The notes: generated by a model not told the origin, from the sequence alone. A DNA stretch of 64,000 nt from an uncultured Verrucomicrobiae bacterium (GCA_963842445.1 CAWJHF010000016.1:8067-72066); one strand, 5' to 3'. Positions 8,596 through 63,177 are shown, counted from the first letter of the stretch. Numbers and translations are program-made.

Positions 8596-8614
8596 AAATC
8601 GAAAACTCCAACGA

Positions 8615-9759: not shown

Positions 9760-10578
9760 CTACCTGCGCCGACGCACCATCGCTAAAGCAAATGAACCGA
9801 GGCCAAGAAGGGCGAAGCTTGAAGGCTCGGGGACAGGCTCCAATCCGGATAATTGTAACGATACCCACGGGCTGTCGGGGTCGTTTTGGGCGAGAGTATC
9901 CGTGCTCATGGTTAACTCATATATGTCGCCCGCGTTGAAATCCGTATCAAGTGCAAGAGTGCCTGACCCTGCTGTTGTAAGTCCCCCCGTGTATACCCAT
10001 GGGGCCCAATCTGGGATTGCTCCTAGACCCGGATTAGGCAATCCATAATTCCACACCTCATTGCCTGATGTAACATCAAGCAGACTCAAAGACCCTTCGG
10101 AGCACTCAAGCCAATGGTCACCCCCTGAAAACTGTATGTTTATGATTGTTGTTTGGCTTGTTAAGAGTGAGAACCAGACTTCGCTTGTCGCACTCGCTGC
10201 ATTGTAGATAATGTCGGGGTCGCTAAAGCCTTGGCTTGGGGTATTCGCATATATTGCAAACAGGCCCGCATTAGCTTCTGCCGCCAACGAACCAGTGAAA
10301 AAGTCATTCAGCGAGTCGCTGATTGGAACAGTTGAAGTTATTGTTCTTGAGATTAAAGGGGGGCCCGGGTTGTTCTCCGCCATACTTACAGTAGTCGTGT
10401 ATTGAGTGTCGAGAATGTAAACCGGCGATGGATAGCCTGCCGACGCGAATGCCAGTGTTAGGAGCAGCGACACCCAAACGATTGACCTCGAATTCGTTCT
10501 GGCCTTAGCGCCAAGCTTGAACTCGGCACAATCAGCAGCAAGGAAAGATGGGAGGAAGGATTTGGTTTTCATATTCAT
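9760..10578 (-). CDS. PEP-CTERM sorting-signal protein
   Basis: C-terminus is VPEPSSFALLGLGSFALAMVRRRR (PEP motif, TM helix, Arg cluster). The N-terminus has a signal-like hydrophobic segment. Confidence 0.8.
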   Translation of the reverse strand: MNMKTKSFLPSFLAADCAEFKLGAKARTNSRSIVWVSLLLTLAFASAGYPSPVYILDTQYTTTVSMAENNPGPPLISRTITSTVPISDSLNDFFTGSLAAEANAGLFAIYANTPSQGFSDPDIIYNAASATSEVWFSLLTSQTTIINIQFSGGDHWLECSEGSLSLLDVTSGNEVWNYGLPNPGLGAIPDWAPWVYTGGLTTAGSGTLALDTDFNAGDIYELTMSTDTLAQNDPDSPWVSLQLSGLEPVPEPSSFALLGLGSFALAMVRRRR

Positions 10579-21049: not shown

Positions 21050-21790
21050 TTAATTGTTGCCGCACCTTCTCTCAGGCCAGTTCCCCTTCTGGCTTGGGGC
21101 CGCCAGAACCGGCACAAAATCCGCCAAAGTGTTTCTTTCCAACACAAGCGAGCTCCGCTCCACTTCTACGGGAGTCGGGCCGCCCAAAACCTCAAGCAGC
21201 ACCTGCACCCGTTTTTTTGCCGGCATTACACGCAAAACAAACGCACGCATGCCGGTAAACGCCCCATCGACAAAAATCACTTCATCAGCAGGTGAAATAC
21301 GATCCTCAACTGTCATGGGGAGGTCGGCCTCAAAGCACTCCCGCAATTCTTCAATGATCGAATCAGGGACAGCAGGAATTTTTTGCCCAAAATGCACGAG
21401 GCTACTGATTCCACCGGCATGTCGAATGGCATTGAAATCTTCTTCAAGCACACAACGAATAAAGATGTAGCAAGGAAACAGGGGTTCCACGACACGCATC
21501 ACACCGCGCTGAGTTGCCCGTTCTATACGAAGCCGTGGATGAAATACTTCCAATTCAAAATTCTGGCGCAAATTAGCCGCCGCAATGTGTTCGTGCTTCG
21601 GCTTTGTCCGCGCACAGTACCACGCCAAACAACCCTCAATTCCCCGCTGGTTGGCAACCCTATGATCTGTTTCCCCAATCGAAACATCCACCAACGGACG
21701 AAGAACTGAACCACCCGCCTCCTGAGGCGTGTACACTTTAGAGACACCGATTCCCCTAGTGCTCGACAATATGGATGAACCACCAATCAC
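21050..21790 (-). CDS. NusG-like (RfaH/UpxY-type) operon-specific transcription antiterminator; start uncertain
   Basis: NGN-like WYCARTKPKHEHIAAANLRQ..EVFHPR and C-terminal KOW-like ISPADEVIFVDGAFTGMRAFV. It sits at the head of the polysaccharide operon. Confidence 0.7.
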   Translation of the reverse strand: MIGGSSILSSTRGIGVSKVYTPQEAGGSVLRPLVDVSIGETDHRVANQRGIEGCLAWYCARTKPKHEHIAAANLRQNFELEVFHPRLRIERATQRGVMRVVEPLFPCYIFIRCVLEEDFNAIRHAGGISSLVHFGQKIPAVPDSIIEELRECFEADLPMTVEDRISPADEVIFVDGAFTGMRAFVLRVMPAKKRVQVLLEVLGGPTPVEVERSSLVLERNTLADFVPVLAAPSQKGNWPERRCGNN

Positions 21791-21908: not shown

Positions 21909-22595
21909 TCAAGAATTTGGCTCGTTTGCCCAATTTATGGCATGTCGCACAAGCTCAAGGCCGCTTTCAATATTTAACTTCTCCTTGATTCTGGCTCTAT
22001 ATGTTTCCACTGTGCTTACATCAATATGTAATGTGGCAGCGATCTGGCGTGTGCTCTGACCGGAGCCGATAAGTTGAAAAACCTGCATCTCACGGTCCGT
22101 CAACAAATCAAATTTTGTGGCGGTCGGCGCTGCACCGGCAATCTTAGAGGCAATTCGCGCCGCAGCCCTTTCGCTCCAGTAAATTTCACCGCTCAGTATT
22201 TTTCGAATCGCCAGCAGAATCCTCGCAGGAACTTCGTATTTGGTAATGTATCCGCGCGCACCTGCACGGATCGCCCGTTCAGCATGAATCATTTCATCAT
22301 GCATGGAGAGCACCAAGCTTTGCACTTCCGGAAAACGCTCTCGAAGGTCTTTGATGAGTTCCAGTCCGTGAGAACTTTTCAAAGTCAAATCCACAATCGC
22401 CAGCTGGGGTTCGGTGGCACTCACAATCTCCAAGGCCTGCTCGCGATCCTCCGCTTCACCGCAAACCACCAGATCAGGTTCCCCTTGGATAATTTTCTTC
22501 AACGACTCACGAACCAGTGGATGATCGTCAACGATCAAAACACGCACGCGCGTATTGTCCTTGTCGTCGGATTTGTCGGAATTGTCACCGTTCAT
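21909..22595 (-). CDS. NarL/FixJ-family response regulator (REC + LuxR HTH)
   Basis: VLIVDDHPLVRESL...AIVDLTLK receiver domain and LTDREMQVFQLIGSGQSTRQIAATLHIDVSTVETYRARIKEKL. Confidence 0.9.
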   Translation of the reverse strand: MNGDNSDKSDDKDNTRVRVLIVDDHPLVRESLKKIIQGEPDLVVCGEAEDREQALEIVSATEPQLAIVDLTLKSSHGLELIKDLRERFPEVQSLVLSMHDEMIHAERAIRAGARGYITKYEVPARILLAIRKILSGEIYWSERAAARIASKIAGAAPTATKFDLLTDREMQVFQLIGSGQSTRQIAATLHIDVSTVETYRARIKEKLNIESGLELVRHAINWANEPNS

Positions 22596-41608: not shown

Positions 41609-42721
41609 TCACTGTTCCTGCCGTTTCAGTTCAATCTCGACCATTTCGCAGTTGTCATCGAAGCCGGCATTCTGCAGACCCGGTGTGAAGGTGAGATTCA
41701 TCACCCGGCCATTCTCCCGAAACAGTTCCGGATGCAAGTAGGCACAATACACCAGCTCCACACGTTTCCCCTGACGATATTCGGGCACTTCGATGCGCGC
41801 GAGCGGCGGACTCCAAGGGCCATAAGGCGTATCCGCAACATGGAACCGAATCTCCCGCGGGTGATCGAAGTCGCTCGACGAAGCCATGACATACTTTGCC
41901 AGATACGGATTCCAAGCAACGGAGACTTGACCGGGGACGTTTTTGACCAGAAACGTTGCGGCCGCTTGCCGAGACGAGAATTTCGGACCAGCACCCGTGT
42001 AGAACTCGTAGGCATCGGGGTCCTCGATTTTCTCCGGGCGCACCCGGGCCAGAGCGACGCCCTGCTTCCCTTTGTTTTCCTTGATCTCGTATAGATAAAT
42101 CCACCCGTCCGCCTCAAGAACTTGAGCCGCTCCAACTGGAAAACGCCAATCCCCGTGCGGACGAAGCCGCTCGTATGGGCCGAGCGCAACCTTTGCCCGG
42201 CCGAGGCCGGAACCGACGCCGCGAAAATCCCATTGTCCCTTCCCAAAAATCTCCATCAGCGTATAAAAAAGGTAGTATTGACCGTTCACGTGGATTCCGC
42301 CCAGCGCCCAAATTCCATGGCGCTTCGCAGTTTCGTCCGGGAAATACGCAAATGGCGAGACGGCATCACCATTGCTGGACACGAGATAAGTGAAGGCCGG
42401 CGGATAACTTCTGGCATTCTCCCCAAGAAAGGCGATGGAGCAGGATACGGCTCCTCCGGCGAAGTGCGGAGTCCCATCAGCGAACCGCGAGCCTTTGAAG
42501 GTGTCGCCGAAAACCCAGATCGCCCCGCCCGGGACCGCGAATGACTGTCCGCCATCCTGGGAAACAACTGAAGCCCGGGCGTGCGACTCGTTCCAAAGCG
42601 AGCCGAGGAAATTGGTTTGGACAATCTCAAAAGTCCCGCCCGCCTGCTTTTCCGTCGGCATGGAGGTGGAACATCCCGCAACGATGACTATCAGACCAAG
42701 TGCGATGAAAAGTTGTTTCAT
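41609..42721 (-). CDS. lipoprotein, DUF4185-like / glycoside-hydrolase-like beta-propeller
   Basis: Lipobox MKQLFIALGLIVIVAGC (ATG 42721). The motifs IWVFGDTF and GGIHVNGQYYLFY resemble DUF4185. Confidence 0.5.
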   Translation of the reverse strand: MKQLFIALGLIVIVAGCSTSMPTEKQAGGTFEIVQTNFLGSLWNESHARASVVSQDGGQSFAVPGGAIWVFGDTFKGSRFADGTPHFAGGAVSCSIAFLGENARSYPPAFTYLVSSNGDAVSPFAYFPDETAKRHGIWALGGIHVNGQYYLFYTLMEIFGKGQWDFRGVGSGLGRAKVALGPYERLRPHGDWRFPVGAAQVLEADGWIYLYEIKENKGKQGVALARVRPEKIEDPDAYEFYTGAGPKFSSRQAAATFLVKNVPGQVSVAWNPYLAKYVMASSSDFDHPREIRFHVADTPYGPWSPPLARIEVPEYRQGKRVELVYCAYLHPELFRENGRVMNLTFTPGLQNAGFDDNCEMVEIELKRQEQ

Positions 42722-42765
42722 AATTCCCCTTCTTGTCGCGCCGAAATCGGATGAAGGCGGATGAA

Positions 42766-42815
42766 GGCGCGGTCGCCTGTCCCGTCGTAGCCAAGCGAAG
42801 ATGGAAGAATGGCGG
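42766..42815. repeat. REP-like element type 2, copy 2
   Basis: ggcgcggtcgcctgtcccgtcgtagccaagcgaagatggaagaatggcgg, in the hsdS-lipoprotein spacer. Confidence 0.45.
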
Positions 42816-42878
42816 ATTTCCTCTCCGCCTCGAACGGGGAGAGGATGAAAGGTGAGGTGTCGAATTGACTGGCGGTAA

Positions 42879-44075
42879 TCATAATTCACCTCGAAATGCC
42901 CGATCCAAAATCGCTGGCAGCAAGGCGTCCAGTTTGGCGGCGGTTTCGGCTTGCAGGCGCGTCAGCGCGTCCACCTCCGCCTGCAACGCGTCCAGCTCGG
43001 CCACGATCCGGCGCTGCTCGGCGAGCGGAGGCGTTGGAATTTCCAAATCACGAATATCGCCAAGTGAAATGTTTGGGCGTGCCGTTTCAACTTTTCCACC
43101 GTGAATTGTATCTTGCGCAATTGGGCTAAGAAGAAAGTGAACGAGGAAATCTGGCACCAACTTTTCTTTGTCCGGGCTAATCACGCCGACGGCTTGGTTG
43201 ACGTTTGCATCGCCCAAATCTCCGGGCACAGCGCACGCTCGTCCGATAGACGCGCCGACGAGATTTATCAGAACGTCATCTTTACGCAATTGGCAGCGCG
43301 ACAATTTTTCATGGAAGCCTTGCGGGATGTGAATAGCGTTGCGCGGGTCAAGGCTGCCCCACAGGACATTTTCGCTTCGGATGAAAAGCGGACCTGTATC
43401 TTGGTAAGTGAATCCTTGCCATTCTGGTGATTCGCCCTTCGTGACGCGACTCGACAAATCTTCAAGCCGTGAAGCGCCAAAATCCTTCGCAGCAGAAATA
43501 AAGAATGTGTTGCGTCCGGCGCTACGAAGCGCCTCGGCTTCTTCGGCGGCTTGGTGGCGGAGGGTGCGGGCCTCGTGGATTTGGGCGGCCAGGGCCTCAA
43601 TCCGCGCCACCACCCGCCGCTGCTCCGCCAACGGCGGCAACGGAATTTCGCAAGCGAGAAAAATTTTCGGCCTGACAGCGGCATAGCCAGTCGTGCCTTT
43701 CGCCTCCGCGTCCAACTGCTCTTGTAGAAAGTTCGCGTCGAAGATGGCTTTGAGCCAACGCCGATCAAGCTTGTCCTCACGAATATCGAACAGGAAGAAG
43801 TGGTTTGTGCAAAGTGCGCCTTCACCTTCCGGCGGAACGAAACCAATCGCGCCTTTCTTGCCCCAGATTTCGGACAGGATAACTTGCCCGGCTTTTGCAA
43901 GCTGATGGCGTTTCATCTTGAGCATCGCGCCGTCCGTTGGAGCATCAAGCACAACTCCTTTGCCGTAGAGTTTTACCGAGAGCTTCCGGTATTCTCGCGG
44001 TTCAGGTGCTTCGATGTAATCGGTGTAGTGCGTGAGCACTTCGCCCAACTTCACGGTTGGCCATTGCTTGCTCAT
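42879..44075 (-). CDS. hsdS: type I restriction-modification specificity subunit
   Basis: Two target-recognition halves, each followed by a conserved helix (LPPLAEQRRVVARIEAL... and PPLAEQRRIVAELDAL...). The ATG at 44075 overlaps the hsdM stop (ATGA). Confidence 0.9.
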   Translation of the reverse strand: MSKQWPTVKLGEVLTHYTDYIEAPEPREYRKLSVKLYGKGVVLDAPTDGAMLKMKRHQLAKAGQVILSEIWGKKGAIGFVPPEGEGALCTNHFFLFDIREDKLDRRWLKAIFDANFLQEQLDAEAKGTTGYAAVRPKIFLACEIPLPPLAEQRRVVARIEALAAQIHEARTLRHQAAEEAEALRSAGRNTFFISAAKDFGASRLEDLSSRVTKGESPEWQGFTYQDTGPLFIRSENVLWGSLDPRNAIHIPQGFHEKLSRCQLRKDDVLINLVGASIGRACAVPGDLGDANVNQAVGVISPDKEKLVPDFLVHFLLSPIAQDTIHGGKVETARPNISLGDIRDLEIPTPPLAEQRRIVAELDALQAEVDALTRLQAETAAKLDALLPAILDRAFRGEL

Positions 44076-45652
44076 GCCTGCTTTGCCAAAAGTTTCTGGA
44101 TGTTGCCCATGATTTCCGCGATGCGCTGCTCTTTCTTCAGGATTTCGGCGGCGAGTTGCGCGGGCGGCAGGTGCGTGATGTCTTCCTTGGCGCGCGGGTT
44201 CTTGCGGTCGAGATTGCATCCGTTCGCCAGCAACTCGGCGGCGGGCACCACCCAGGCCCGGTCACTTTCCTTTCGGTTATTCCACCATTGGATGCAATCG
44301 GCGAATTCCTCAAACTGGATGGGTGCGGTTTTGGTGTAATTCTTCCGGCCTTCGGGCAGCGGTTGTTCGTAATACCAGACTTCGCGCGTCGGGCCGGAGC
44401 GGTCGAAGAACAGCAGGTTCGTCGGGATGCTGGTGTAGGGCGCAAACACGCCGTTCGGCAGCCGGACGATGGTGTGCAGGTTAAATTCTTTCAGCAATTC
44501 CTCCTTGATGCGGGCGCAAACGCCATCGCCGAACAACGTGCCATTGGGAACGACCACGGCGGCCCTTGCATAGGTAGGGACGCTGCGCTGCGGCGTCCGG
44601 TCATCGCAGCGCGATGACCCTACCTTTTTCAGCTTCCGCATGATTAACTGGAGGAACAGCAGCGCCGTTTCCGCCGTTTGTTTGTCTTCGGGGAAATTGC
44701 CTTGGATGCCTTTCTCCTCCTCGCCGCCGAAAGGCGGGTTGGTGAGGATCACGTCCACGCGGTCGCGCTCGCCGATGTCCGTCAGCTTGAAGCGGAGCGA
44801 ATTGCCGGGATCAATCTGCGGCGCGTCGAGGCCGTGCAACAACAGGTTCATCTGGCAGAGCAGATACGGCAGCGTCTTGGGTTCGCAGCCAAAAAGAGAT
44901 TTTTCCTGCAAGACCTTGCGGTCAGCCACCGTCTTAACTTGTTTTGACAAGTGATTAAACGCTTCAACGAGGAAGCCGCCTGTGCCGCACGCCGGATCGA
45001 GCACGGTCTCGCCTAAGCGCGGGTCGGTGACGGCGACCATGAGGCGCACGACGGCGCGTGGGGTGTAAAACTCGCCGGAATCGCCCGCCGCATCGCGCAT
45101 CTCGCGGAGCATGGATTCGTAGAGCGCACCCAGCGTCTGCAGCTCGCTGCTGGAGGTGAAATGAATGCCGGCAAGCTTATTGATGACATCGCGCAACAGG
45201 TAGCCGCTGACCATGCGGTTCTGCACTCCCTTGAACACGGTGGCAATCACGTCCCGCCGATCGTCGCCATTGGAACTGGTGAGCGTGCGCAGGTAACGGA
45301 ACAGGCCTGCGCCACGCTTGCCGTCCGGGCGCGTGGTCTCCTCGTTGTTGATGAAGGCGAGCAATTCGTCGCCGGTGATGCCGTCGGACTTGGCGGCCCA
45401 ATCGCGCCAGCGATAGGGCGGTTCGATGGCCGGCTTGAACTTTTTGGCGGCGAGCTTGGCCTCGCCCTCGCGCTGAATTTCCAGGTCGTCCAGAAATTTC
45501 AGGAACATGATCCATGTGAGCATCGGCAACCGGTCAAGGTCGCCATTCAGCCCCTTGTCCTTTCTCATGATGTCGCGCGCAGATTTCAGGAGCGCCCCGA
45601 GTGATTGGGCGGTGGTAGGAGAAGCCGGAACGAGCTTAGGATTCGGCGCCAT
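44072..45652 (-). CDS. hsdM: type I restriction-modification N6-adenine DNA methyltransferase subunit, with an 18-aa in-frame palindromic-element insertion
   Basis: HsdM N-domain (LDRLPMLTWIMFLKFLDD), motif I DPACGTGGF and motif IV NPPFGG. The start is set at MAPNPK (ATG 45652). Confidence 0.9.
   Translation of the reverse strand: MAPNPKLVPASPTTAQSLGALLKSARDIMRKDKGLNGDLDRLPMLTWIMFLKFLDDLEIQREGEAKLAAKKFKPAIEPPYRWRDWAAKSDGITGDELLAFINNEETTRPDGKRGAGLFRYLRTLTSSNGDDRRDVIATVFKGVQNRMVSGYLLRDVINKLAGIHFTSSSELQTLGALYESMLREMRDAAGDSGEFYTPRAVVRLMVAVTDPRLGETVLDPACGTGGFLVEAFNHLSKQVKTVADRKVLQEKSLFGCEPKTLPYLLCQMNLLLHGLDAPQIDPGNSLRFKLTDIGERDRVDVILTNPPFGGEEEKGIQGNFPEDKQTAETALLFLQLIMRKLKKVGSSRCDDRTPQRSVPTYARAAVVVPNGTLFGDGVCARIKEELLKEFNLHTIVRLPNGVFAPYTSIPTNLLFFDRSGPTREVWYYEQPLPEGRKNYTKTAPIQFEEFADCIQWWNNRKESDRAWVVPAAELLANGCNLDRKNPRAKEDITHLPPAQLAAEILKKEQRIAEIMGNIQKLLAKQA
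44573..44624. repeat. REP-like structured palindromic element type 1, copy C (inside the hsdM coding sequence)
   Basis: ggtagggacgctgcgctgcggcgtccggtcatcgcagcgcgatgaccctacc belongs to the same family as 61174-61225 and 62499-62549. In hsdM it is translated as VGSSRCDDRTPQRSVPT. Confidence 0.8.
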
Positions 45653-45848
45653 GAGATTTGGTACGGTATGGAACCGGTGTTTCGCGCAACGCAGCGGCCT
45701 CCGTGACGGAAATCCACACGGCTTTGCCATCCCGCCAGACGGCCAGCGGACGGCCGCGCCGCTGATGGTCGGCAACGACTTTGGCCACGGCATCCGCCAG
45801 TGCCTGTATCGCCTTTTGTGTCAGAGAGGATTCGGTTCGTTTTTTCAT
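45636..45848 (-). CDS. small hypothetical protein (70 aa), possible partner of the zeta-like ATPase
   Basis: MKKRTESSLTQKAIQALADAVAKVVADHQRRGRPLAVWRDGKAVWI... Its ATG overlaps the ATPase stop (ATGA), and its 3' end overlaps the hsdM start by 17 nt. Confidence 0.45.
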   Translation of the reverse strand: MKKRTESSLTQKAIQALADAVAKVVADHQRRGRPLAVWRDGKAVWISVTEAAALRETPVPYRTKSHGAES

Positions 45849-46430
45849 GGTGCAAACCGCCGTCGCAATTGTTCGTAAAGCGCGGCATCGCCAATCGTAG
45901 TGTGGCCCGCTTCGTCTTTGAAGATTAAACGCGGCGTGTCGGACGAGTTGTCGAAGAAATGCAATGTGTCGAGCCACGGGCGGTAAAGCGTGAAAAGATT
46001 GCCCACCGTGCGGCCAAATCGCCGCCGGACATCGCGCTCCGGGACGTTGTGTCCGCCGCTCTCGACGCGATCGCGAATGCGCAGCAAGGCCAGGTCGGGA
46101 CTGGGAATCCACAGATAGAACATGTGCAGCCGGAAGCCGGCCTTTTTCGCGCCGCGCAGCAACGGCACATAGGAGCGACCCGACAAAAATGGTTTCAAAG
46201 GCGAAATCGGTTCGCGCTGCCGTGAATTCCGCGATGCGCTCCAGAACGGCGCGCCCGACGCGCAACATGCCCGCGTCTGGATCGAAGGGCGAATAGGCGC
46301 GGGCCAGCAAATCTGGATTGATGAAATTGCGGCAGTTGGCGTAGAGCGGCAGGAACTCCGTGGCAAACGTGGTTTTGCCTGCGCCGTTCGGGCCGGCGAT
46401 GACATAGCAGTTGGCAAACTTACGCGGCAT
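45845..46430 (-). pseudogene. zeta-toxin-like / COG4185-type P-loop ATPase, split by a +1 frameshift in a homopolymer
   Basis: Frame A carries MPRKFANCYVIAGPNGAGKTTF...TDFAFET. Frame B carries LSGRSYVPLL...GGHNVPERDVRRRF...FFDNS. The frames join if one base is removed from the A5 run at 46185-46189. Confidence 0.7.
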
Positions 46431-46506
46431 ACAGCAGCGTTTGCAGTTGGTTCACGGCGTTGCGGAGCTGGTCTGCGCCGCCGAATTTGCCGATGATTTC
46501 ATTCAC
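46420..46506 (-). pseudogene. hsdR 3'-tail remnant 2 (..VNEIIGKFGGADQLRNAVNQLQTLLYAA*)
   Basis: It begins directly after the Fic stop. Its terminal codons overlap the ATPase ATG. It contains the 50-nt conserved core. Confidence 0.7.
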
Positions 46507-46513
46507 GATTTGC

Positions 46514-47632
46514 TCATTTGATTTTAGCCTTTGGCTTTCGACCTTTGGCGGTTCCGTTATTACCCTCTTTATTACCCTCTTTCAAGGGTAATACCCTCTT
46601 TTGCCATTTCGCACCCGGGCCGCGGCCGAGACATTCGACGTGGCCGGCAGCCTTCAGGTCGCGCAACAAAAGACGAATCATGTCGCGGCTGACGCCGGGG
46701 CAGAGCCGCTCAAGGTCGGTGATGCCGAATTCGCCGGCAAGGTTTTCAATGGCGTGCTCGACCAGTTCGGTTTTCGCGCCGCGCGGCGATTTGAGCTGGC
46801 CGACGCGCTGCTCAAATTCCTTACAGGCTTGCGTGAGGATGAAGAGCAGGAAATTCATCGCCGGCCAAGGATCATGTTTGCTTTCGTGCCAGCGCTGGGA
46901 ACTCTGTTCCAGGACTTCGTAATACCGTTCCTTGTTTTCCTCGATGAGGCGTTCCAGGCTGATGTAGCGTCCGGCTTCAATGCCGCAGTGATAGCACGCC
47001 AGCAGAAAGAGCAGACGCGAGACGCGGCCATTACCATCGCGAAAGGGGTGGATGCAGAGAAAATCCAGATTCAACGCCGCCGTCAGGACGAGTGGATGAA
47101 CCCATCTTTCGCGCCAGCCACGCTCCCACAGTTCAACCATTTCCGCCATCGCCCGGGGTGTTTGTTTTGCCGGAACGGATTTGAAACGGACGCGGCTGCG
47201 GCCATCGGCATAGGTCTGGATAATGTCCACATCTTTTTCTTTGTAACGACCGGCGTCCCAGACCTGGCCTTGGCAGAGTTTGTGGAGCCGCTTGATGGTG
47301 GTTTCAGCGATTGGCAGTTTTGCGCCGGATTCGTGGATGAGTTTCAATGCGTCCCGATAACCGCGCACTTCCTCCTCGTCGCGGTCGCGCAAAGCGGGTT
47401 TACCGAAAATGAGCGTAGCGACGCGGGATTTGTCCACTTCCACGCCTTCGATGCGGTTTGATGAAATAGCGCTTTCAATCAAGGCGTGCTCGCGCAGCAC
47501 CTTGAGCTTTTGCGGTGACTGGCGGGTGAACAACTCTTGTTTTCCGCGCGCCTCGGCCAGGTCGGTCAAATACCACGTCGTCCGCGTCGGCAACGCGGCT
47601 GGTTCGGCGGCGAGTTGGCGGAGGGTCATCAT
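46514..47632 (-). CDS. Fic-family protein (AMPylase-type) with a C-terminal winged-helix-like domain
   Basis: Canonical Fic motif HPFRDGNGRVSR. N-terminal Fic-N-like helices. Confidence 0.9.
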   Translation of the reverse strand: MMTLRQLAAEPAALPTRTTWYLTDLAEARGKQELFTRQSPQKLKVLREHALIESAISSNRIEGVEVDKSRVATLIFGKPALRDRDEEEVRGYRDALKLIHESGAKLPIAETTIKRLHKLCQGQVWDAGRYKEKDVDIIQTYADGRSRVRFKSVPAKQTPRAMAEMVELWERGWRERWVHPLVLTAALNLDFLCIHPFRDGNGRVSRLLFLLACYHCGIEAGRYISLERLIEENKERYYEVLEQSSQRWHESKHDPWPAMNFLLFILTQACKEFEQRVGQLKSPRGAKTELVEHAIENLAGEFGITDLERLCPGVSRDMIRLLLRDLKAAGHVECLGRGPGAKWQKRVLPLKEGNKEGNNGTAKGRKPKAKIK

Positions 47633-47635
47633 GGG

Positions 47636-47743
47636 TCAAGCGGAATAGAGCAGCGATTGGAGTTGGTTGACGGCGTTGCGGAGCTGGTCCGTGCCGCCGA
47701 ATTTACCGATGATTTCGTTTACGTTACTGAGAGATCGCGTCAT
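47636..47743 (-). pseudogene. hsdR 3'-tail remnant 3, preserved as a 35-aa mini-ORF
   Basis: MTRSLSNVNEIIGKFGGTDQLRNAVNQLQSLLYSA*. Its ATG overlaps the cupin gene stop (ATGA), and its stop lies 3 nt before the Fic ATG. Confidence 0.7.
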
Positions 47744-48114
47744 TTGACAGGACTCCTGCTTTCTTCAACCGATGACGGCCACCGGACGGTGATGACAACC
47801 GCTTTGGTGAGAGCTTCCCACCTGTGTTCTCGTTTGTCCTCCCAGACGACGAAGTTTCCGGGAGACCGCAAAACAAAAGTATCGGTTTTCCTACTGGAAC
47901 GGATTTGCACGAGAAACTCTCCGGACAAAAGTAACGTAATGGTTTTCTTTCCAGGCTGCGATTTCCAATCGCCGGATTCACCAGTTTCATGCACACCCCA
48001 TTTGATTTCGATATCGTCAGTCGCTCTCAATGAACGTTTCTTCACAAAGTGGCCGACAATCCAACCACGTGTGGGCTGACCACAGACTACTGCGTTTCCA
48101 AACTCTGGGCGCAT
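47740..48114 (-). CDS. cupin-like small protein
   Basis: PTRGWIVGHFV...DIEIKWGVH..G......TLLLSGEF....VVWEDKREHRWEALTKAVVITVRWPS resembles small single-domain cupins I have seen. Weak. Confidence 0.4.
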   Translation of the reverse strand: MRPEFGNAVVCGQPTRGWIVGHFVKKRSLRATDDIEIKWGVHETGESGDWKSQPGKKTITLLLSGEFLVQIRSSRKTDTFVLRSPGNFVVWEDKREHRWEALTKAVVITVRWPSSVEESRSPVK

Positions 48115-48115
48115 A

Positions 48116-48340
48116 CTATCGTGGGTCCCTCTGTTTTATCGGCTGTGAAGTTGTTCTCGGATTCTCGTATCCTTGGCGTATTGTTTCCAACCATCTGTCG
48201 CCTCCTCGGAGGCTTCGCCCGCCGGACGAAACAAAGAAGTCGATCCCTCCCAGAAACGATTTGTTTAGCTGCTGTTGCAACCAGAGCGCAATCGGAGCTT
48301 CCTCATGCACATGCGAAATAAACACCAAGGGCTTACTCAT
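48116..48340 (-). CDS. TIR-like domain N-terminal fragment (74 aa)
   Basis: KPLVFISHVHEEAPIALWLQQQLNKSFLGGIDFFVSS...GGDRWLETIRQ looks like the first strand, helix and strand of bacterial TIR domains. The ORF ends before the region where the catalytic Glu would lie. Confidence 0.4.
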   Translation of the reverse strand: MSKPLVFISHVHEEAPIALWLQQQLNKSFLGGIDFFVSSGGRSLRGGDRWLETIRQGYENPRTTSQPIKQRDPR

Positions 48341-48346
48341 ATCATA

Positions 48347-50725
48347 TCAGGTTGCATACAGCAGCATTTGAAGTTTGTTCACGGCGTTGCGGAGCTGGTC
48401 CGTGCCGCCGAATTTGCCGACGATTTCGTTGACGTTGCCGTGGAATGAAATCGGCGGGACTTTCAGCACATCGGGCAGGGTGAATTGGAGTTCGCCGTCG
48501 GTGGCGTATTTCTCCAGCAGGTCTTTCAGGATTTCCTGGGCTTCCAAGCTGAAGTAGCCGAAGAAAGCCGATTGCTGTCTCTTAAAGCGGTCGGCGCGCT
48601 GGCGGCGGGTGACCACGGGCGCGTTGAAGGCGAGGTGGCACAGCAGGTCGAATGGGTCGGCGTCCGGTTTGCCCACCTGCGCGGCGACTTGCTGGAAATC
48701 AATCCCGCGCTCGGCAAGCTGCTGGATGATGTCGGCGCGCTGGCCGGCGTCGGCCCAGCGGGCGCGCAAATCCTCCGGGCTGGCGCAGAGCGTCCGCACC
48801 TTCTCGGCGGTGTAGTCGGTGAGCTTGACGACGCGGAGTTGTTTGCCGTCGGAATCAAGCTCGTGGACCAGTTCGGCGGCAATTTCGACCTGTCCGCCGT
48901 CGAAGTAGTACTTTCGGCGTTCGGACGGTGGACCGTCCACGATGACGGGCGGTTGGACTTCTTCCTGAAGCTTGCCGTCGTCATCCTCGGTTTCCTCCGG
49001 CGTGATGACTTCGGTTTCTTTCACCTTGCCGTATTCGTCAATTTCCTCCTGCGTGGCGAACGCCGGATCACCGTCGAAGGTTGGGTCGGCGAAGTTGCGC
49101 GTGGCCGTGCCGGTGTAGTCGAGGATGTTGAACCAGAGCTTGCCGTAGTCGTCGCGCACGCGCGTGCCGCGCCCGATGATTTGCTTGAACTCGACCATCG
49201 AGTTGACAAGGCGCACGAGCACGACGTTGCGGCAGGTGGGCGCGTCGAGGCCGGTGGTGAGCAGTTGCGAGGTGGTCAGGATGACGGGCGTGCGCGTCTC
49301 CACGTCCTGAAACCGCTGCATGTGGCCGCGCCCGATGTCGCCTTCGTCGGCGGTGACGCGGCAGACGTAATCGGGGAATTGCTGGACGAGGTCGGTGTTC
49401 AGATTGTTGAGCGCGGTGCGCATCTCGGATGCGTGTTCCTGGTCCACGCAAAAGACGATGGTCTTGGCGAAGCGGTCGTTTTTTTTGAGGAAGTCGGTCA
49501 AGTGTTTCGCGATGATCTCCGTGCGCTTCAGTAACGCCACTTTTCGCTCGAAATCTGCCGTGGTGTATTCCCCGTCAGGGATGCGGCGACCGTAACGGTC
49601 GAGGTCGTCTTTGCTCGGGCGCCAGCCGGCAGCATCCCATTGTGTGATGATGCGGTGGACGCGATATGGCGCGAGGAAACCGTCGTCAATGCCCTGTTTG
49701 AGGCTGTAGGTGTAAATCGGGTTGCCGAAGTAGAGATAGGTGTCCTTGTTGTCCTGGCGCAACGGCGTGGCGGTCATGCCGAGTTGATAGGCGGGCTCAA
49801 AGTATTCGAGGATTTCGCGCCAGTTGGAATCTTCCTTGGCGCTACCGCGGTGGCACTCGTCCACGATGATGAGGTCGAAGAAGTCAGGCGCGAATTCTTT
49901 GTAAAGACCGGGACGACGTTCGTCCTTGGCGATGGATTGATAGGTGGCGAAATACATCTCACGGCTGAACACGGCGTTACCGCCCTCAATCTTGTGCCGG
50001 GCGTCCCCGAATGGTGCGAAGATTTTGTCCTTGGGGTCGTCCACGAGAAAGTTGCGGTCGGCGAGATACAGAATGCGTGGTTTTCTTTGGGGCTCGTTCT
50101 TCCGATTCCATTTCGAGGACCAAAGTTTCCAGCAAATTTGAAAGGCGACATCCGTCTTGCCCGTGCCGGTAGCCATCGTCAGCAACACCCGCTTCCTGCC
50201 TTGCAGAATGGCTTGCACGGCGCGGTCAATCGCGATGCACTGATAATAACGCGGTTCCCTCCCGGTAGTCAGATTGGCCGAAGTCAGCAGGCGTTGTGCG
50301 GCGGTGTCGTCCGTAAGTTTTTCCCCTGCACGAAGCCGTGACCAGAGTTCGGCCGGCGCCGGAAAGCTTCCAATCACCCGTTCTTTGCCGGTGAGGAAAT
50401 CAAACTCGACGATACCCTGGCCGTTGGTGGCATAGGCGAATTTCAGGCCGAGGATTTGGGCGTATTCCTTGGCCTGTTGCAAGCCATCCGCTGCTTTCTT
50501 GTATTGCGCCTTGGCTTCGACTACTGCCAAGGTGAAGTCGCGCGTATAGCGCAACAGGAAATCGGCGCGTTTGCCTTTGCGGCGTTCGGCCCGACTGCCA
50601 CGAACCACGATGCGTCCGGCGGTGAAATAGCGTTGCTCGGCGATGGAATGCGGGTCGTTGTCCCACCCGGCAGCTTGAAGCTTCGGCACAACGAATTTGC
50701 GGCATGTATCGGCTTCGGTTGACAT
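48347..50725 (-). CDS. hsdR: type I restriction enzyme R subunit (EcoAI/EcoEI-like, with an EcoEI_R_C-type tail)
   Basis: N-terminal nuclease region (ADFLL...VVEAK), helicase motifs MATGTGKT and DECHR, and the C-terminal tail LKVPPISFHGNVNEIVGKFGGTDQLRNAVNKLQMLLY. Confidence 0.92.
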   Translation of the reverse strand: MSTEADTCRKFVVPKLQAAGWDNDPHSIAEQRYFTAGRIVVRGSRAERRKGKRADFLLRYTRDFTLAVVEAKAQYKKAADGLQQAKEYAQILGLKFAYATNGQGIVEFDFLTGKERVIGSFPAPAELWSRLRAGEKLTDDTAAQRLLTSANLTTGREPRYYQCIAIDRAVQAILQGRKRVLLTMATGTGKTDVAFQICWKLWSSKWNRKNEPQRKPRILYLADRNFLVDDPKDKIFAPFGDARHKIEGGNAVFSREMYFATYQSIAKDERRPGLYKEFAPDFFDLIIVDECHRGSAKEDSNWREILEYFEPAYQLGMTATPLRQDNKDTYLYFGNPIYTYSLKQGIDDGFLAPYRVHRIITQWDAAGWRPSKDDLDRYGRRIPDGEYTTADFERKVALLKRTEIIAKHLTDFLKKNDRFAKTIVFCVDQEHASEMRTALNNLNTDLVQQFPDYVCRVTADEGDIGRGHMQRFQDVETRTPVILTTSQLLTTGLDAPTCRNVVLVRLVNSMVEFKQIIGRGTRVRDDYGKLWFNILDYTGTATRNFADPTFDGDPAFATQEEIDEYGKVKETEVITPEETEDDDGKLQEEVQPPVIVDGPPSERRKYYFDGGQVEIAAELVHELDSDGKQLRVVKLTDYTAEKVRTLCASPEDLRARWADAGQRADIIQQLAERGIDFQQVAAQVGKPDADPFDLLCHLAFNAPVVTRRQRADRFKRQQSAFFGYFSLEAQEILKDLLEKYATDGELQFTLPDVLKVPPISFHGNVNEIVGKFGGTDQLRNAVNKLQMLLYAT

Positions 50726-51091: not shown

Positions 51092-51179
51092 GCCGGTGTG
51101 GCGAAATGGCAGACGCACAGGACTTAAAATCCTGGGACCATAAAAAGTCGTGTGAGTTCGAGTCTCACCACCGGCACCA
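51092..51179 (+). tRNA. tRNA-Leu (anticodon UAA), class II with long variable arm, CCA encoded
   Basis: Hand fold: acceptor GCCGGTG/CACCGGC, D arm GCG/CGC, anticodon stem CAGGA/TCCTG with loop CTTAAAA, 17-nt variable arm, T arm GTGAG-TTCGAGT-CTCAC, discriminator A, then CCA. Confidence 0.9.
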
Positions 51180-60575: not shown

Positions 60576-60986
60576 GCTCTTGAACGCGCCTAGGCAACCA
60601 AAGTTGCCGGATTAAGTAAAGCAAAAACCACAATATACAGCGTAGCCTTGCTGTTGCAGGCACAACTAATTGGTGAGGAACCATGATTTGCTTTGTGCCG
60701 ACAACTGCTTACTCTAATCTCTCAAACCGTTGGCATTTATACGCCTGCCGGAAGAATCCGTCAACTGGTATTTTTAGCGGTAGAATTTAACCAGCAGCAG
60801 CGGACGCAAATCGGCCACAATTCCGCGAAGGATGAACTGACTCATGTTGGCCGGTACGATAATTGGGTCGCGAAGGGGGTGGAATAATCATTGCAGCTTG
60901 CCTTTTTAATACGACATCAGATCAAAAAACCAATTGACACTTTTACAATCTTGCATCAGTTTATCCGCATCCGTTGATTTGACGGT

Positions 60987-61100
60987 CTCATGCAGAGTGG
61001 CTGAGGGACTGGCCCGATGACGCCACGGCAACCGGCCCCGAATGCGTTCGGGGCGACCAGGTGCCAATTCCAGCCCTGACAGGTGTCGGGGAAAAATGAG
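60987..61100 (+). promoter_or_regulatory. SAM-I (S-box) riboswitch aptamer
   Basis: P1 CTCAT...ATGAG. Conserved cores GAGGGACTGGCCCGATGACGCCACGGCAACC and AGGTGCCAATTCCAGC, then GAAAAATGAG. Confidence 0.9.
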
Positions 61101-61120
61101 AAGCGTGCGCAAATTTTATC

Positions 61121-61153
61121 AGCCCCTTCTCAGCCATGAGTCGGGGCTTTTTT
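61121..61153 (+). terminator. intrinsic terminator (riboswitch expression platform)
   Basis: AGCCCC-ttctcagccatgagtc-GGGGCT followed by TTTTTTG. The loop contains CATGAG, which could pair alternatively with the P1 3' strand. Confidence 0.75.
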
Positions 61154-61173
61154 GTTGCCCCGGAAGCAAAAGA

Positions 61174-61225
61174 GGTAGGGACGCCGCGCTGCAGCGTCCG
61201 GTCGGCGCAGCGCGCCGACCCTACC
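61174..61225. repeat. REP-like structured palindromic element type 1, copy A
   Basis: ggtagggacgccgcgctgcagcgtccggtcggcgcagcgcgccgaccctacc. Outer stem GGTAGGG/CCCTACC and two internal hairpins. Confidence 0.8.
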
Positions 61226-61238
61226 AAACGAAAAATTT

Positions 61239-62495
61239 ATGGAAAAGCACAGTGGTTACATGAAGGCGCTGAAATGCCGGGAATGCGGACGCGAATATCC
61301 GCTCACGGCCAATCACGTCTGCGAGTTCGACTTCGGCCCGCTCGAAGTCGCCTATGACTACGACCGCATCAAAACGTCTTTGACGCGGGCGGCCATCCAA
61401 TCGCGCCCGCAGACGATGTGGCGTTACCGCGAATTGCTGCCGGTGGCGAACGACCCGACCGTCGGGCTGCAAGTCGGTTTCACGCCGCTCGTTAAAGCCG
61501 ACCGCTTGGCGAAAAAACTCGGCATCCGCGAATTGTGGATCAAGAACGACTCGGTGAATTACCCCACGCTGTCATTTAAAGACCGCGTCGTGAGTGTCGC
61601 GTTGAGCCGTTCGCGCGAACTCGGTTTTGAAACCGTCGCTTGCGCCTCGACCGGCAACCTGGCCAATTCCGTCGCCGCCCAGGCCGCGAGCGCCGGATTG
61701 AAAGCTTATGTGTTCATTCCGTCGGATTTGGAGCAGGGCAAAATCGTCAACTCGTTGATTTACGGCGCGCACGTCATCGGCATCAAAGGCCATTACGACG
61801 AGGTGAACCGGCTTTGCGCCGAGATTGCGGGCAAGTTCGGCTGGGCGTTTGTGAACGTGAACATGAGGCCATATTACGCCGAAGGCTCGAAGAGCATGGC
61901 GTATGAAATCGCCGAGCAACACGGCTGGCGCGTGCCGCGGCACACCGTCGTGCCGGTGGCGTCCGGTTCGTTACTGACAAAAATCCAGAAAGGCTATCAG
62001 GAGTTCATCAAGCTGGGCCTCGTGCCGGAGACGGAACATGCCGTGCACGGCGCGCAGGCGACGGGTTGTTCGCCGATTTCCGTAGCGCAAAAAGCGGGCC
62101 TGGATTTCTTCAAACCGGTGAAGCCGGATACGATTGCGAAATCGCTGGCCATCGGCACGCCAGCAGACGGCTTTTATGCGCTCAAGGTAATGCGGGACAC
62201 GAACGGCGCAGCGGAGGACGTGACCGATGATGAGATTCGCGACGCCATGAAACTGCTCGCCGAGACGGAAGGTATTTTTGCCGAAACCGCCGGCGGCGTG
62301 ACCGTGGGCGTGGCCAAGAAACTGATTGATTCAGGCAAAATTCCGCATGATGATTCGGCGGTGCTTTGTGTAACGGGCAACGGACTGAAGACGCTCGACG
62401 CCGTCATCGGCCACGTCGGCAAGCCGCGTGAAATCAAGCCGAGCCTGCGTGAGTTTGAAGCGCTGATCACAAATGAAGAGAAAGTGAATGCGTAA
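61239..62495 (+). CDS. threonine-synthase-like fold-type II PLP enzyme with N-terminal zinc ribbon (under SAM riboswitch control)
   Basis: CRECG...HVCE zinc-ribbon, PLP-lysine motif TLSFKDR, and ASTGNLANSVAA. The start could be 61239 or 61260. Confidence 0.85.
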   Translation: MEKHSGYMKALKCRECGREYPLTANHVCEFDFGPLEVAYDYDRIKTSLTRAAIQSRPQTMWRYRELLPVANDPTVGLQVGFTPLVKADRLAKKLGIRELWIKNDSVNYPTLSFKDRVVSVALSRSRELGFETVACASTGNLANSVAAQAASAGLKAYVFIPSDLEQGKIVNSLIYGAHVIGIKGHYDEVNRLCAEIAGKFGWAFVNVNMRPYYAEGSKSMAYEIAEQHGWRVPRHTVVPVASGSLLTKIQKGYQEFIKLGLVPETEHAVHGAQATGCSPISVAQKAGLDFFKPVKPDTIAKSLAIGTPADGFYALKVMRDTNGAAEDVTDDEIRDAMKLLAETEGIFAETAGGVTVGVAKKLIDSGKIPHDDSAVLCVTGNGLKTLDAVIGHVGKPREIKPSLREFEALITNEEKVNA

Positions 62496-62498
62496 TAT

Positions 62499-62549
62499 GG
62501 TAGGGACGCCGCACCGCGGGTCCGGTCGGCGCAGCGCGCCGACCCTACC
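62499..62549. repeat. REP-like structured palindromic element type 1, copy B
   Basis: ggtagggacgccgcaccgcgggtccggtcggcgcagcgcgccgaccctacc, between the thrC-like and ThiS-like genes. Confidence 0.8.
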
Positions 62550-62568
62550 GCGAAAATGGATTTAATTT

Positions 62569-62844
62569 ATGCCAAAGAAAGTCCGAATCCCAACGCCGCT
62601 CCGCAAGTTGACCAACAACAAGGAACTGGTCGAAGTCAACGCCGCCACCATCGGCGAGGCGATTGTCGAATTGCAGGCGCGCTTCCCCGGCATCCAGGAA
62701 CGCCTCGTGGATGAAAAAGGCGAGGTGCGCCGCTTCGTGAACGTCTATGTGAACGAGGAGGACATCCGCTTCCTCAAGAACAAACAGACGCCTCTCAAAG
62801 ACGGCGACGAAATCAGCATCATCCCCGCTATCGCGGGTGGTTGA
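62569..62844 (+). CDS. ThiS/MoaD-family ubiquitin-like sulfur-carrier protein
   Basis: 91 aa ending ...DGDEISIIPAIAGG*, the beta-grasp family C-terminal GG. Confidence 0.8.
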   Translation: MPKKVRIPTPLRKLTNNKELVEVNAATIGEAIVELQARFPGIQERLVDEKGEVRRFVNVYVNEEDIRFLKNKQTPLKDGDEISIIPAIAGG

Positions 62845-62889
62845 ATCGTTGAACCGTTAAATGGTTGAATCATAAAAAAGAAATTTGTT

Positions 62890-63177
62890 ATGGCCACCAA
62901 AAGGAAAAAGATTCCTGCAACGAAATCCAGTTCACCCACACAACAGCGGCTGTGGCTGATGTTCCCGCCGAAGCTCATCAAGAAGCCAATCGTCTGGGAA
63001 GTCGGGCACAAGTTCAAGGTCGTCACCAACATCCGGCAGGCCAGCGTGACGGATGAAATCGGCATCGTATGCCTCGAACTCGACGGCCCGCGCGATGAAG
63101 TGAAAGCCGCCATCAAATGGCTGGAGAAACACGGCGTCAACGTCGAGCCGGTGGAAATCAGCGTAATCGAAAGCTGA
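62890..63177 (+). CDS. NIL-domain protein
   Basis: LMFPPKLIKKPIVWEVGHKFKVVTNIRQASVTDEIGIVCLELDGPRDEVKAAIKWLEKHGVNVE resembles the NIL domain found at MetN C-termini. Confidence 0.65.
   Translation: MATKRKKIPATKSSSPTQQRLWLMFPPKLIKKPIVWEVGHKFKVVTNIRQASVTDEIGIVCLELDGPRDEVKAAIKWLEKHGVNVEPVEISVIES

Follow-up and report, generated by a model that had tools for sequence, protein, structure and literature searches.

What does an enzyme annotated as a threonine synthase do behind a riboswitch for S-adenosylmethionine (SAM), in front of genes for a ubiquitin-like sulfur carrier and a NIL-domain protein? The question is raised by a locus near the end of a stretch of 64,000 nucleotides (nt), hereafter the window, from an uncultured Verrucomicrobiae bacterium (GCA_963842445.1, CAWJHF010000016.1:8067-72066). 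The original prediction had read this locus as a probable carrier-dependent route to homocysteine and methionine. Our analysis indicates that it is probably an operon of three genes for methionine biosynthesis, of the MetM/MetO type, which SAM switches off; that the genes encode a homocysteine route of this type, taken by itself and judged from sequence, appears quite likely. The elements of the operon, all on the + strand, are the following:

60985..61102, + strand: SAM-I (S-box) riboswitch aptamer, matched by the RF00162 covariance model
61096..61153, + strand: expression platform, with the P1 3' strand (5' half of the antiterminator) at about 61096-61103, the terminator hairpin at 61121-61148 and a U6 tract ending at 61153
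61239..62495, + strand: MetM-like pyridoxal phosphate (PLP) enzyme, a ThrC homolog of 418 amino acids with a probable start at 61260, matched by PF00291 and TIGR00260
62569..62844, + strand: MetO/CysO-type ubiquitin-like sulfur carrier of 91 amino acids with a Gly-Gly C-terminus, matched by PF02597
62890..63177, + strand: stand-alone NIL-domain protein of 95 amino acids, matched by PF09383

Since a convergent gene comes next, the operon was taken to end at 63177. Proteins that share more than 85% identity with those of the window are labelled Verrucomicrobiota, Limisphaerales or Pedosphaera, so that the host does belong, as predicted, to the Planctomycetes-Verrucomicrobia-Chlamydiae group.

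The aptamer and terminator platform that had been claimed for the leader were both recovered. Using Rfam cmscan, RF00162 (SAM-I) matched at 82.6 bits (gathering score 44.4, E 5.6e-18), over model positions 1-108 of 108, and folding gave the hairpin at 61121-61148 a stability of -17.3 kcal/mol, directly followed by the U6 tract. In the alternative pairing, the P1 3' strand AUGAGAAG pairs with the terminator 5' arm CUUCUCA at -8.9 kcal/mol. Terminator and antiterminator are thus mutually exclusive, which is the classic layout of an S-box OFF switch, and SAM binding, repression by the leader and a transcriptional OFF-switch logic would be expected from it. The hairpin and its U-run were found nearly invariant in five close relatives (L001-L005). 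A simple consensus terminator scan did not call the 61121-61148 hairpin, because its loop exceeds 8 nt, and upstream of the aptamer no promoter of the sigma-70 type was predicted. When 28 homologous leaders were fitted to the RF00162 model, whose structure covers P1-P3 and omits P4, 95.6% of the cells were paired and 16 pairs carried compensatory changes, while none of 500 shuffles was as good and slid alignments were paired at 38-50% (about 40%). A strong GC-rich hairpin is also found at 61174-61225, between the terminator and the start codon, within a region (61085-61245) that folds at -65.8 kcal/mol (z = -3.0). It was ruled out as a part of the switch, since the relatives are GC-rich there but do not conserve the hairpin.

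The enzyme behind this leader was matched by PF00291 (PALP, 234 bits) and by the thrC model TIGR00260 (283 bits), and it stayed under the cut-off of NF006050 (292 against 303). As anticipated, it is annotated as 'threonine synthase' in every database source. Its translation probably starts at the second ATG, at 61260, giving 411 amino acids, because a 1-nt indel in the near-identical locus L001 shifts the first ATG out of frame. The PLP lysine, K114 in the SFKDR motif, was invariant in a diverse alignment of such enzymes. Sequence identity sets the protein apart from housekeeping threonine synthases: it amounts to 57-92% within a clade of enzymes linked to carrier genes and to 33-38% with canonical class-II ThrCs, a low value that parallels the 33% reported between Bacillus subtilis ThrC and MetM. 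A neighbour-joining tree placed the window enzyme among the carrier-linked enzymes and far from canonical ThrCs; this tree was built from representatives of 50%-identity clusters, including many fragments and chimeras, is noisy, and served solely to tell MetM-like from canonical ThrC enzymes in broad terms. A Cys-rich N-terminal extension of about 55 amino acids (window 61239-61400), with the pattern C-x2-C...C-x2-[C/D] and a weak match to the NinF zinc-ribbon-like family, was considered as a diagnostic of MetM and rejected, since it occurs in a distant ThrC-like clade too. Its cysteines are C13, C16 and C28 in the window enzyme, with D31 at the fourth ligand position, where most homologs have Cys.

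A characterised counterpart of this arrangement exists, and the actinomycete metM/metO route that the original prediction mentioned proved to be real. In Streptomyces albulus, homocysteine is formed from O-phosphohomoserine by a thiocarboxylate route (Hasebe et al. 2024, AEM 90:e01247-24, as relayed in the GapMind 2026 preprint). In the account given by that preprint, the ThrC homolog MetM is 'often misannotated' and takes its sulfur from the thiocarboxylate of the carrier MetO, with MoeZ acting as the ligase and Mec maturing MetO. Additionally, a SAM riboswitch lies upstream of S. albulus metM, and homologs were noted in cyanobacteria (PMC12172450). The window resembles this system in its PLP enzyme, which is homologous to ThrC and misannotated as threonine synthase, in the ThiS/MoaD-type carrier encoded next to it and in the SAM riboswitch upstream. 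It differs in its Verrucomicrobiota host, in a carrier that ends exactly at Gly-Gly, whereas S. albulus MetO requires Mec, in having no E1 or JAMM gene near the operon, and in its third gene, which encodes a NIL protein. By homology to S. albulus MetM, the window enzyme would carry out the same chemistry. A homolog from Micromonosporaceae (L089) is 52-54% identical to the window enzyme and has a SAM-I element immediately upstream (68.8 bits), which links the clade to the actinomycete MetM group. The idea that the locus extends the metM/metO logic therefore stands for the new phylum and the NIL partner. The core pathway and its riboswitch control, on the other hand, are already published, which makes this part less new than was originally implied: riboswitch, enzyme and carrier form a known kind of system, and what is new is the Verrucomicrobiota host and the conserved NIL partner.

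The carrier gene follows at once, its open reading frame (ORF) beginning 74 nt downstream of that of the enzyme, and its product is the Gly-Gly-ending ThiS/MoaD-type protein that had been described (PF02597 ThiS, 67.8 bits; ...IIPAIAGG, then the stop codon). Its best solved relatives are CysO of Mycobacterium tuberculosis (3dwg_C, E 1.7e-20, about 50% identity) and 4n6e_B. The CysM/CysO/Mec+/MoeZ system of M. tuberculosis (PDB 3dwg) thus resembles the window in its carrier, the identity to CysO extending over the full length, and in pairing a PLP enzyme that acts on a phosphorylated amino acid with a protein thiocarboxylate. It differs in that the window enzyme is of the ThrC type rather than the CysM-type fold II and that its inferred product is homocysteine; we know of no NIL partner of CysO. 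A further comparison is offered by the HcyS/HcyF/HcyD/MetY homocysteine route of Wolinella succinogenes, reportedly described by Krishnamoorthy and Begley in 2011. There too, a protein thiocarboxylate is the sulfur source of homocysteine, and the C-terminal extension of HcyS is cut by a JAMM protease, which recalls the extended and NIL-fused carriers of the related loci described below. The HcyS system, in contrast, uses an O-acetylhomoserine sulfhydrylase (fold type I), without a ThrC homolog or O-phosphohomoserine and without NIL. Since the window carrier ends exactly at Gly-Gly, it would need no C-terminal maturation step. Many Nitrospirota carriers have 1-4 residues beyond Gly-Gly, and these tails, together with the Mec dependence of S. 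albulus MetO, make C-terminal processing look general, so that it seems to be a general feature of these carrier systems.

Whether the enzyme and the carrier belong together was addressed by a comparative survey. An exhaustive search of 50%-identity clusters, followed by a scan of species-representative genomes with the diverse enzyme alignment, yielded 80 loci; with two close-relative contexts the set comprised 82 loci from about nine phyla, among them Verrucomicrobiota, Planctomycetota, Nitrospirota, Thermodesulfobacteriota and relatives, Kiritimatiellae, Omnitrophota, Nitrospinota and Cyanobacteria. SAM-I elements were sought with Rfam and a purpose-built covariance model, and carriers were told from NIL proteins by single-sequence phmmer and length criteria. 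A carrier gene was found 3' of the enzyme gene in about 79 of the 82 loci, the pair being kept across the phyla under differing flanking genes. In 28 of the 82, from at least four phyla (18 in Verrucomicrobiota, five in Planctomycetota, one in Kiritimatiellae and four of Thermodesulfobacteriota type or unclassified), the enzyme gene was directly preceded by SAM-I, and no SAM-I was found there in the cyanobacterial or Nitrospirota loci. In two Nitrospirota loci, L032 and L075, the module is immediately followed by a gene for a canonical ThrC (TIGR00260, 328-333 bits); L035, also from Nitrospirota, has a third ThrC-like PALP gene, which groups with these two. The MetM-like enzyme is therefore not the housekeeping ThrC in those bacteria. 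This finding and the persistence of the carrier bear out the earlier view that threonine synthesis is an unlikely role. Other related loci add genes for CysK/CysM, for E1 enzymes of the ThiF/MoeB/MoeZ type and for JAB/JAMM proteases, as in a Nitrospiraceae example with the order cysK-thiF-enzyme-carrier-NIL-thiF-JAB. Taken together, these neighbours are the full toolkit of a protein-thiocarboxylate pathway.

Several loci of the survey depart from the common arrangement. Two complete tandem SAM-I aptamers (79.8 and 81.2 bits) precede the MetM-like gene at L086:3779-3881 and L086:4014-4118, and likewise in L087; besides a carrier-NIL fusion, L086 encodes two ThiF proteins, a CysK/M-like PALP protein and a protease of the ClpP family. 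On a Nitrospirae contig (L084:7596-8831), the MetM-like gene and a carrier-NIL fusion are directly followed by an ATP sulfurylase gene, which ties that module to assimilatory sulfate activation. Three Verrucomicrobiota loci (L010:7265-7834, L012:4437-5044 and L014:7275-7892) have two tandem carriers between the MetM-like gene and NIL, one ending in PSIAGG or PAFAGG and the other in PAIAGG. About nine cyanobacterial loci contain a second, divergent ThiS-family gene (84-92 amino acids; PF02597, 56 bits) located 0.1-1.6 kb upstream of the MetM-like gene, for example at L050:1087-1353, L043:4572-4835 and L066:4827-5105; the downstream carrier is present there, and NIL and SAM-I are absent. In a Verrucomicrobiia locus (L006:6001-7257), SAM-I and the MetM-like gene are present and, unlike in its relatives, no carrier or NIL was detectable in the 4.9 kb downstream. 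Two further contigs, L002 and L005, labelled 'Candidatus Sulfopaludibacter' (Acidobacteriota) and 'Candidatus Acidiferrales', carry module copies 90-92% identical to Verrucomicrobiota sequences and are for this reason probably mis-binned.

On this basis, the following mechanism may be proposed. At high SAM, the ligand would bind the aptamer and stabilise P1, the terminator (61121-61153) would form and transcription would stop; at low SAM, the P1 3' strand would pair instead with the terminator 5' arm, so that the operon would be read through. The MetM-like enzyme would take O-phosphohomoserine and use the sulfur of the carrier thiocarboxylate in place of water, which would yield homocysteine rather than threonine. 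The carrier would be charged by an E1-type adenylyltransferase/sulfurtransferase encoded elsewhere in the genome, and a JAMM hydrolase, likewise encoded elsewhere, would possibly release the product. The NIL protein would act as an accessory of the carrier, in our favoured reading as a methionine-binding (ACT-like) sensor, whose feedback at the protein level would complement the control by SAM at the RNA level.

The third gene was the addition that the original prediction made to the known logic, and its product is indeed a NIL-domain protein (PF09383, 44.4 bits against a cut-off of 24), 81-97% identical within Verrucomicrobiota and 29-62% identical to those of other lineages. Its gene lies directly 3' of the carrier in 17 of the 21 Verrucomicrobiota loci and in all nine from Nitrospirota. 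Additionally, among metagenomic loci anchored on NIL, a MetM-like gene was found upstream in all 36 that had at least 1.9 kb of upstream sequence, and a carrier within 400 nt in 56 of 64. The window protein has a single, non-conserved Cys; a role in a persulfide relay was rejected because no cysteine is conserved among the NIL proteins of these loci.

Among solved structures, sequence relatives of this protein were found only in the C2 domains of MetN (PDB 3dhw, 3dhx, 3tui; E 2.9e-5 for 3dhx). Its version of the conserved N-I-[LR] motif, N47-I-R, is nearly invariant and aligns with N295-I-I of Escherichia coli MetN. The MetN C2 domain binds methionine for trans-inhibition, and N295, aligned to the motif Asn, is a residue whose mutation reportedly abolishes this inhibition. 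Unlike in MetN, NIL is here a free protein, fused to the carrier elsewhere, and not the tail of an ATPase, and it may bind methionine. In the literature, NIL is treated as a methionine-binding regulatory domain (PMC12068725). The same work concerns the L-aspartate-semialdehyde sulfurtransferase of methanogens and Desulfovibrio, abbreviated L-ASST and composed of MA1821 (COG1900/DUF39) and the NIL-ferredoxin MA1822, in which the NIL domain was described as methionine-binding and regulatory and a CBS domain as sensing SAM (PMC12068725). Both systems attach NIL to a homocysteine-forming sulfur insertion, and the dual control proposed for L-ASST, by methionine through NIL and by SAM through CBS, parallels the pairing of NIL with a SAM riboswitch. 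L-ASST differs in using aspartate semialdehyde and sulfide, with no homoserine intermediate, and in the 4Fe-4S ferredoxin to which its NIL is joined. The scan of the window, which covered ORFs of at least 150 amino acids, nearly all of the non-overlapped ones, detected no DUF39 gene. The label 'L-aspartate semialdehyde sulfurtransferase ferredoxin', which JGI gives to some homologs, was set aside as a mislabel at the domain level, the window NIL being without a ferredoxin domain.

The association of NIL with the carrier goes as far as gene fusion. In eight loci of the survey, carrier and NIL form a single ORF of 171-190 amino acids (Syntrophaceae, Thermodesulfobacteriota, Acidulodesulfobacterium, Planctomycetia, Omnitrophota and unclassified sources), with the carrier first, ending in '...IIPAIAGG', then a linker of 2-3 residues and then NIL. 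The fused form also occurs in a bin labelled Limnocylindrales. When one such fusion was used as the query, at least 120 clusters (90% identity; 167-189 amino acids) were retrieved; among the matches listed, all had both Pfam domains, and the only names were 'MoaD family protein' or 'molybdopterin synthase sulfur carrier subunit'. In every fusion context examined, the fusion directly follows the MetM-like gene. Since a thiocarboxylate forms only on a free C-terminal glycine, the fused carrier must be cleaved after Gly-Gly before it can work. Among the fusion loci of the genome scan that were not cut by a contig end, a JAB protease was present in 7/7 and ThiF in 6/7. That a JAMM protease always accompanies the fusions did not hold as a rule, however, as none was found within 7 kb in three further fusion contexts; one of these contains a ClpP-like gene as well as two ThiF genes, and another an ATP sulfurylase gene. 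The conserved linkage and the fusions together indicate that NIL is a dedicated partner of this carrier system, which agrees with its proposed status as an added component.

Structure prediction with AlphaFold2 (AF2) gave a poor model of the window NIL (predicted local distance difference test, pLDDT, 56) and a confident one of both domains of a fused homolog (pLDDT 88.8, with 84-97 in the NIL block through residue 160). In this model, Gly-Gly occupies residues 90-91, between the last carrier strand and the first NIL strand; the modelled carrier domain matches 3dwg_C at TMt 0.92, and the modelled NIL domain superposes on MetN C2 at 1.5-2.5 Å over about 75 columns. A solved protein with a comparable outline is PDB 1v8c, a 'MoaD related protein' of 168 amino acids from Thermus thermophilus, in which an additional domain of about 80 amino acids comes after an internal Gly-Gly (PPVAGG|GFE...). 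In a Foldseek comparison this protein aligned with the carrier-NIL fusion across about 170 columns, while the sequence profile matches the carrier domain alone; its C-terminal domain was ruled out as a NIL at the sequence level, and 1v8c may represent another 'pro-carrier' architecture.

These observations allow a tentative proposal for the function of NIL, namely that it is a methionine-responsive accessory that may modulate the maturation, charging or use of the carrier. A more specific version, which we regard as unlikely as it stands, would make it the methionine-sensing gate of the ubiquitin-like carrier, acting as a separate subunit or as a cleavable C-terminal pro-domain and coupling methionine to JAMM processing, E1 charging or carrier use. 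Two results count against a methionine-responsive NIL. First, NIL is absent near the module in 32/32 cyanobacterial loci and in those of Gemmataceae and Kiritimatiellae; as whole phyla do without it there, NIL is not essential to the chemistry. Second, the fusion model has a predicted template modelling score (pTM) of 0.54 and hence no fixed carrier-NIL interface.

The rival that survives best is rather doubtful and would give NIL no sensing role: it would be a structural adaptor that docks the carrier onto the enzyme or the E1, or a cap over the reactive C-terminus or its thiocarboxylate, and in the fusions a cleavable pro-domain that, like that of ubiquitin-fusion precursors, serves mainly co-expression. 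Such a role would suit the position of NIL directly after the carrier Gly-Gly, with its short linker, and the JAB protease of all complete fusion loci in the genome scan. C-terminal extensions are evidently tolerated, because the Nitrospirota carriers have their tails and MetO needs Mec, and 1v8c offers a solved MoaD-like protein with an extra domain after an internal Gly-Gly. The fold and the motif Asn, however, match a ligand-binding domain, that of MetN C2. A docked adaptor or cap would also sit uneasily with an AF2 model in which the two domains do not pack confidently, as a cleaved pro-domain would with the three fusion contexts that lack a nearby JAB. Moreover, if NIL were no more than a pro-domain, its survival as a gene of its own, and a highly conserved one, would be unexpected. 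A methionine-responsive accessory thus remains our preferred, if tentative, reading of NIL. No link between NIL and a ThiS/MoaD-type carrier or MetM/MetO was found in the accessible literature, a comparison outside which the primary MetM/MetO paper stood, and apparently neither NIL as a conserved partner nor its widespread fusion with the carrier into a pro-protein has been described.

As for the operon as a whole, several observations weigh against a homocysteine route of the MetM/MetO type. The window enzyme exceeds the equivalog cut-off of TIGR00260, which is 167 bits. Its link to S. albulus MetM is transitive, running through the homologs of Microcystis (L082, about 60% identical to the window enzyme) and Micromonosporaceae, and homocysteine formation was demonstrated for actinomycete members only. 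The homolog of Microcystis aeruginosa, 51.6% identical to MetM, behaved as a threonine synthase/deaminase with mere hints of MetM-like activity, in an assay to which Na2S was supplied and in which charged carrier was not used (PMC12172450). Finally, as already stated in the original prediction for E1-like enzymes, neither ThiF/E1 nor JAB/JAMM families had any match among the scanned ORFs of the window, and the surroundings of 80 related NIL loci, inspected out to 4 kb, likewise yielded neither an E1 nor a JAMM gene. Of the 82 survey loci, 19 contain a ThiF-family gene, none of these 19 being from Verrucomicrobiota or cyanobacteria, and the E1 of the window carrier may be encoded elsewhere in the genome. 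MoeZ of M. tuberculosis is likewise encoded apart from its carrier.

A product other than homocysteine, made by the same enzyme and carrier thiocarboxylate, seems very unlikely. It could be cysteine formed from O-phosphoserine, in the manner of CysM/CysO, or another thio-amino acid, and the proximity of the carrier to M. tuberculosis CysO, which serves cysteine synthesis, would agree with this. In addition, ThrC homologs have evolved other specificities, the window enzyme itself giving a weak match to cysteate synthase (TIGR03844, 68.8 bits), and S-box riboswitches control genes of cysteine and methionine interconversion in some bacteria. A second cysteine synthase would be redundant, however, because related loci encode a dedicated CysK/CysM beside the enzyme; the characterised homolog makes homocysteine, and SAM-responsive control in at least four phyla fits a step of the methionine branch. 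Weaker still, and hardly credible, is the proposal of an ordinary threonine synthase placed behind a SAM riboswitch by chance, with the ThiS-like and NIL genes as unrelated neighbours, which could appeal to the TIGR00260 score, the uniform annotation and the threonine synthase/deaminase activity of the Microcystis homolog in vitro, but is opposed by an enzyme-carrier pair conserved across about nine phyla under differing flanks, by canonical ThrC genes in the same Nitrospirota loci, by the clustering of E1 and JAMM genes with the module and by the logic of plants, in which SAM activates threonine synthase at the O-phosphohomoserine branch point, so that shutting off threonine synthesis at high SAM would run the opposite way. 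The MetM/MetO-type homocysteine route therefore remains the reading we favour for enzyme and carrier.

The remaining content of the window comprises an exopolysaccharide/PEP-CTERM cluster, a type I restriction-modification system, a tRNA-Leu gene and SMC, and, as with the E1 and JAMM genes mentioned above, no second ThrC or met gene was found among its scanned ORFs outside the operon. The exopolysaccharide cluster is large (842-22595, - strand) and also encodes several family-2 glycosyltransferases, a Wzz-like protein, a UDP-GlcNAc 2-epimerase and a sugar transferase. The restriction-modification region spans 41609-50725 on the - strand, and it may be a mobile island, a possibility suggested by the adjoining tRNA-Leu(UAA). 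The individual features are:

6670-8694 and 10599-12569, - strand: asparagine-synthase paralogs of the exopolysaccharide cluster
9760-10578, - strand: PEP-CTERM protein of the same cluster
21050-21790 and 21909-22595, - strand: NusG-like paralog and LuxR-type response regulator, respectively, of the same cluster
41609-42889, - strand: DUF4185 gene flanking hsdS
42879-44219, 44072-45793 and 48347-50725, - strand: hsdS, hsdM and hsdR, respectively, of the type I restriction-modification system
45636-46430 and 46514-47632, - strand: weakly AAA-like ORF and Fic-domain gene, respectively, between hsdR and hsdM
51092-51179: tRNA-Leu(UAA), adjoining the restriction-modification system

With regard to the wider significance of the operon, thousands of proteins annotated as 'threonine synthase' in Verrucomicrobiota, Planctomycetota, Nitrospirota, Thermodesulfobacteriota and cyanobacteria are probably MetM-type homocysteine synthases, and their reannotation would alter the reconstruction of methionine pathways and the auxotrophy predictions made for abundant soil and peat bacteria. 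The linkage of NIL to the carrier and their recurrent fusion provide the first comparative-genomic handle on the role of NIL in homocysteine synthesis, a question that goes back to the work on MA1821/MA1822. The fused form, for its part, implies a bacterial ubiquitin-like carrier that is made as a pro-protein and cut after Gly-Gly, which ties amino-acid biosynthesis to processing of the JAMM type. If the proposed role of NIL is true, the combination of a SAM riboswitch with a putative methionine-binding protein would mean that two end-products are sensed at two levels. Gating by NIL would then represent a protein-level feedback undescribed for any prokaryotic ubiquitin-like sulfur carrier, and it would give the enigmatic NIL domain of homocysteine-synthesis systems a small and tractable model.

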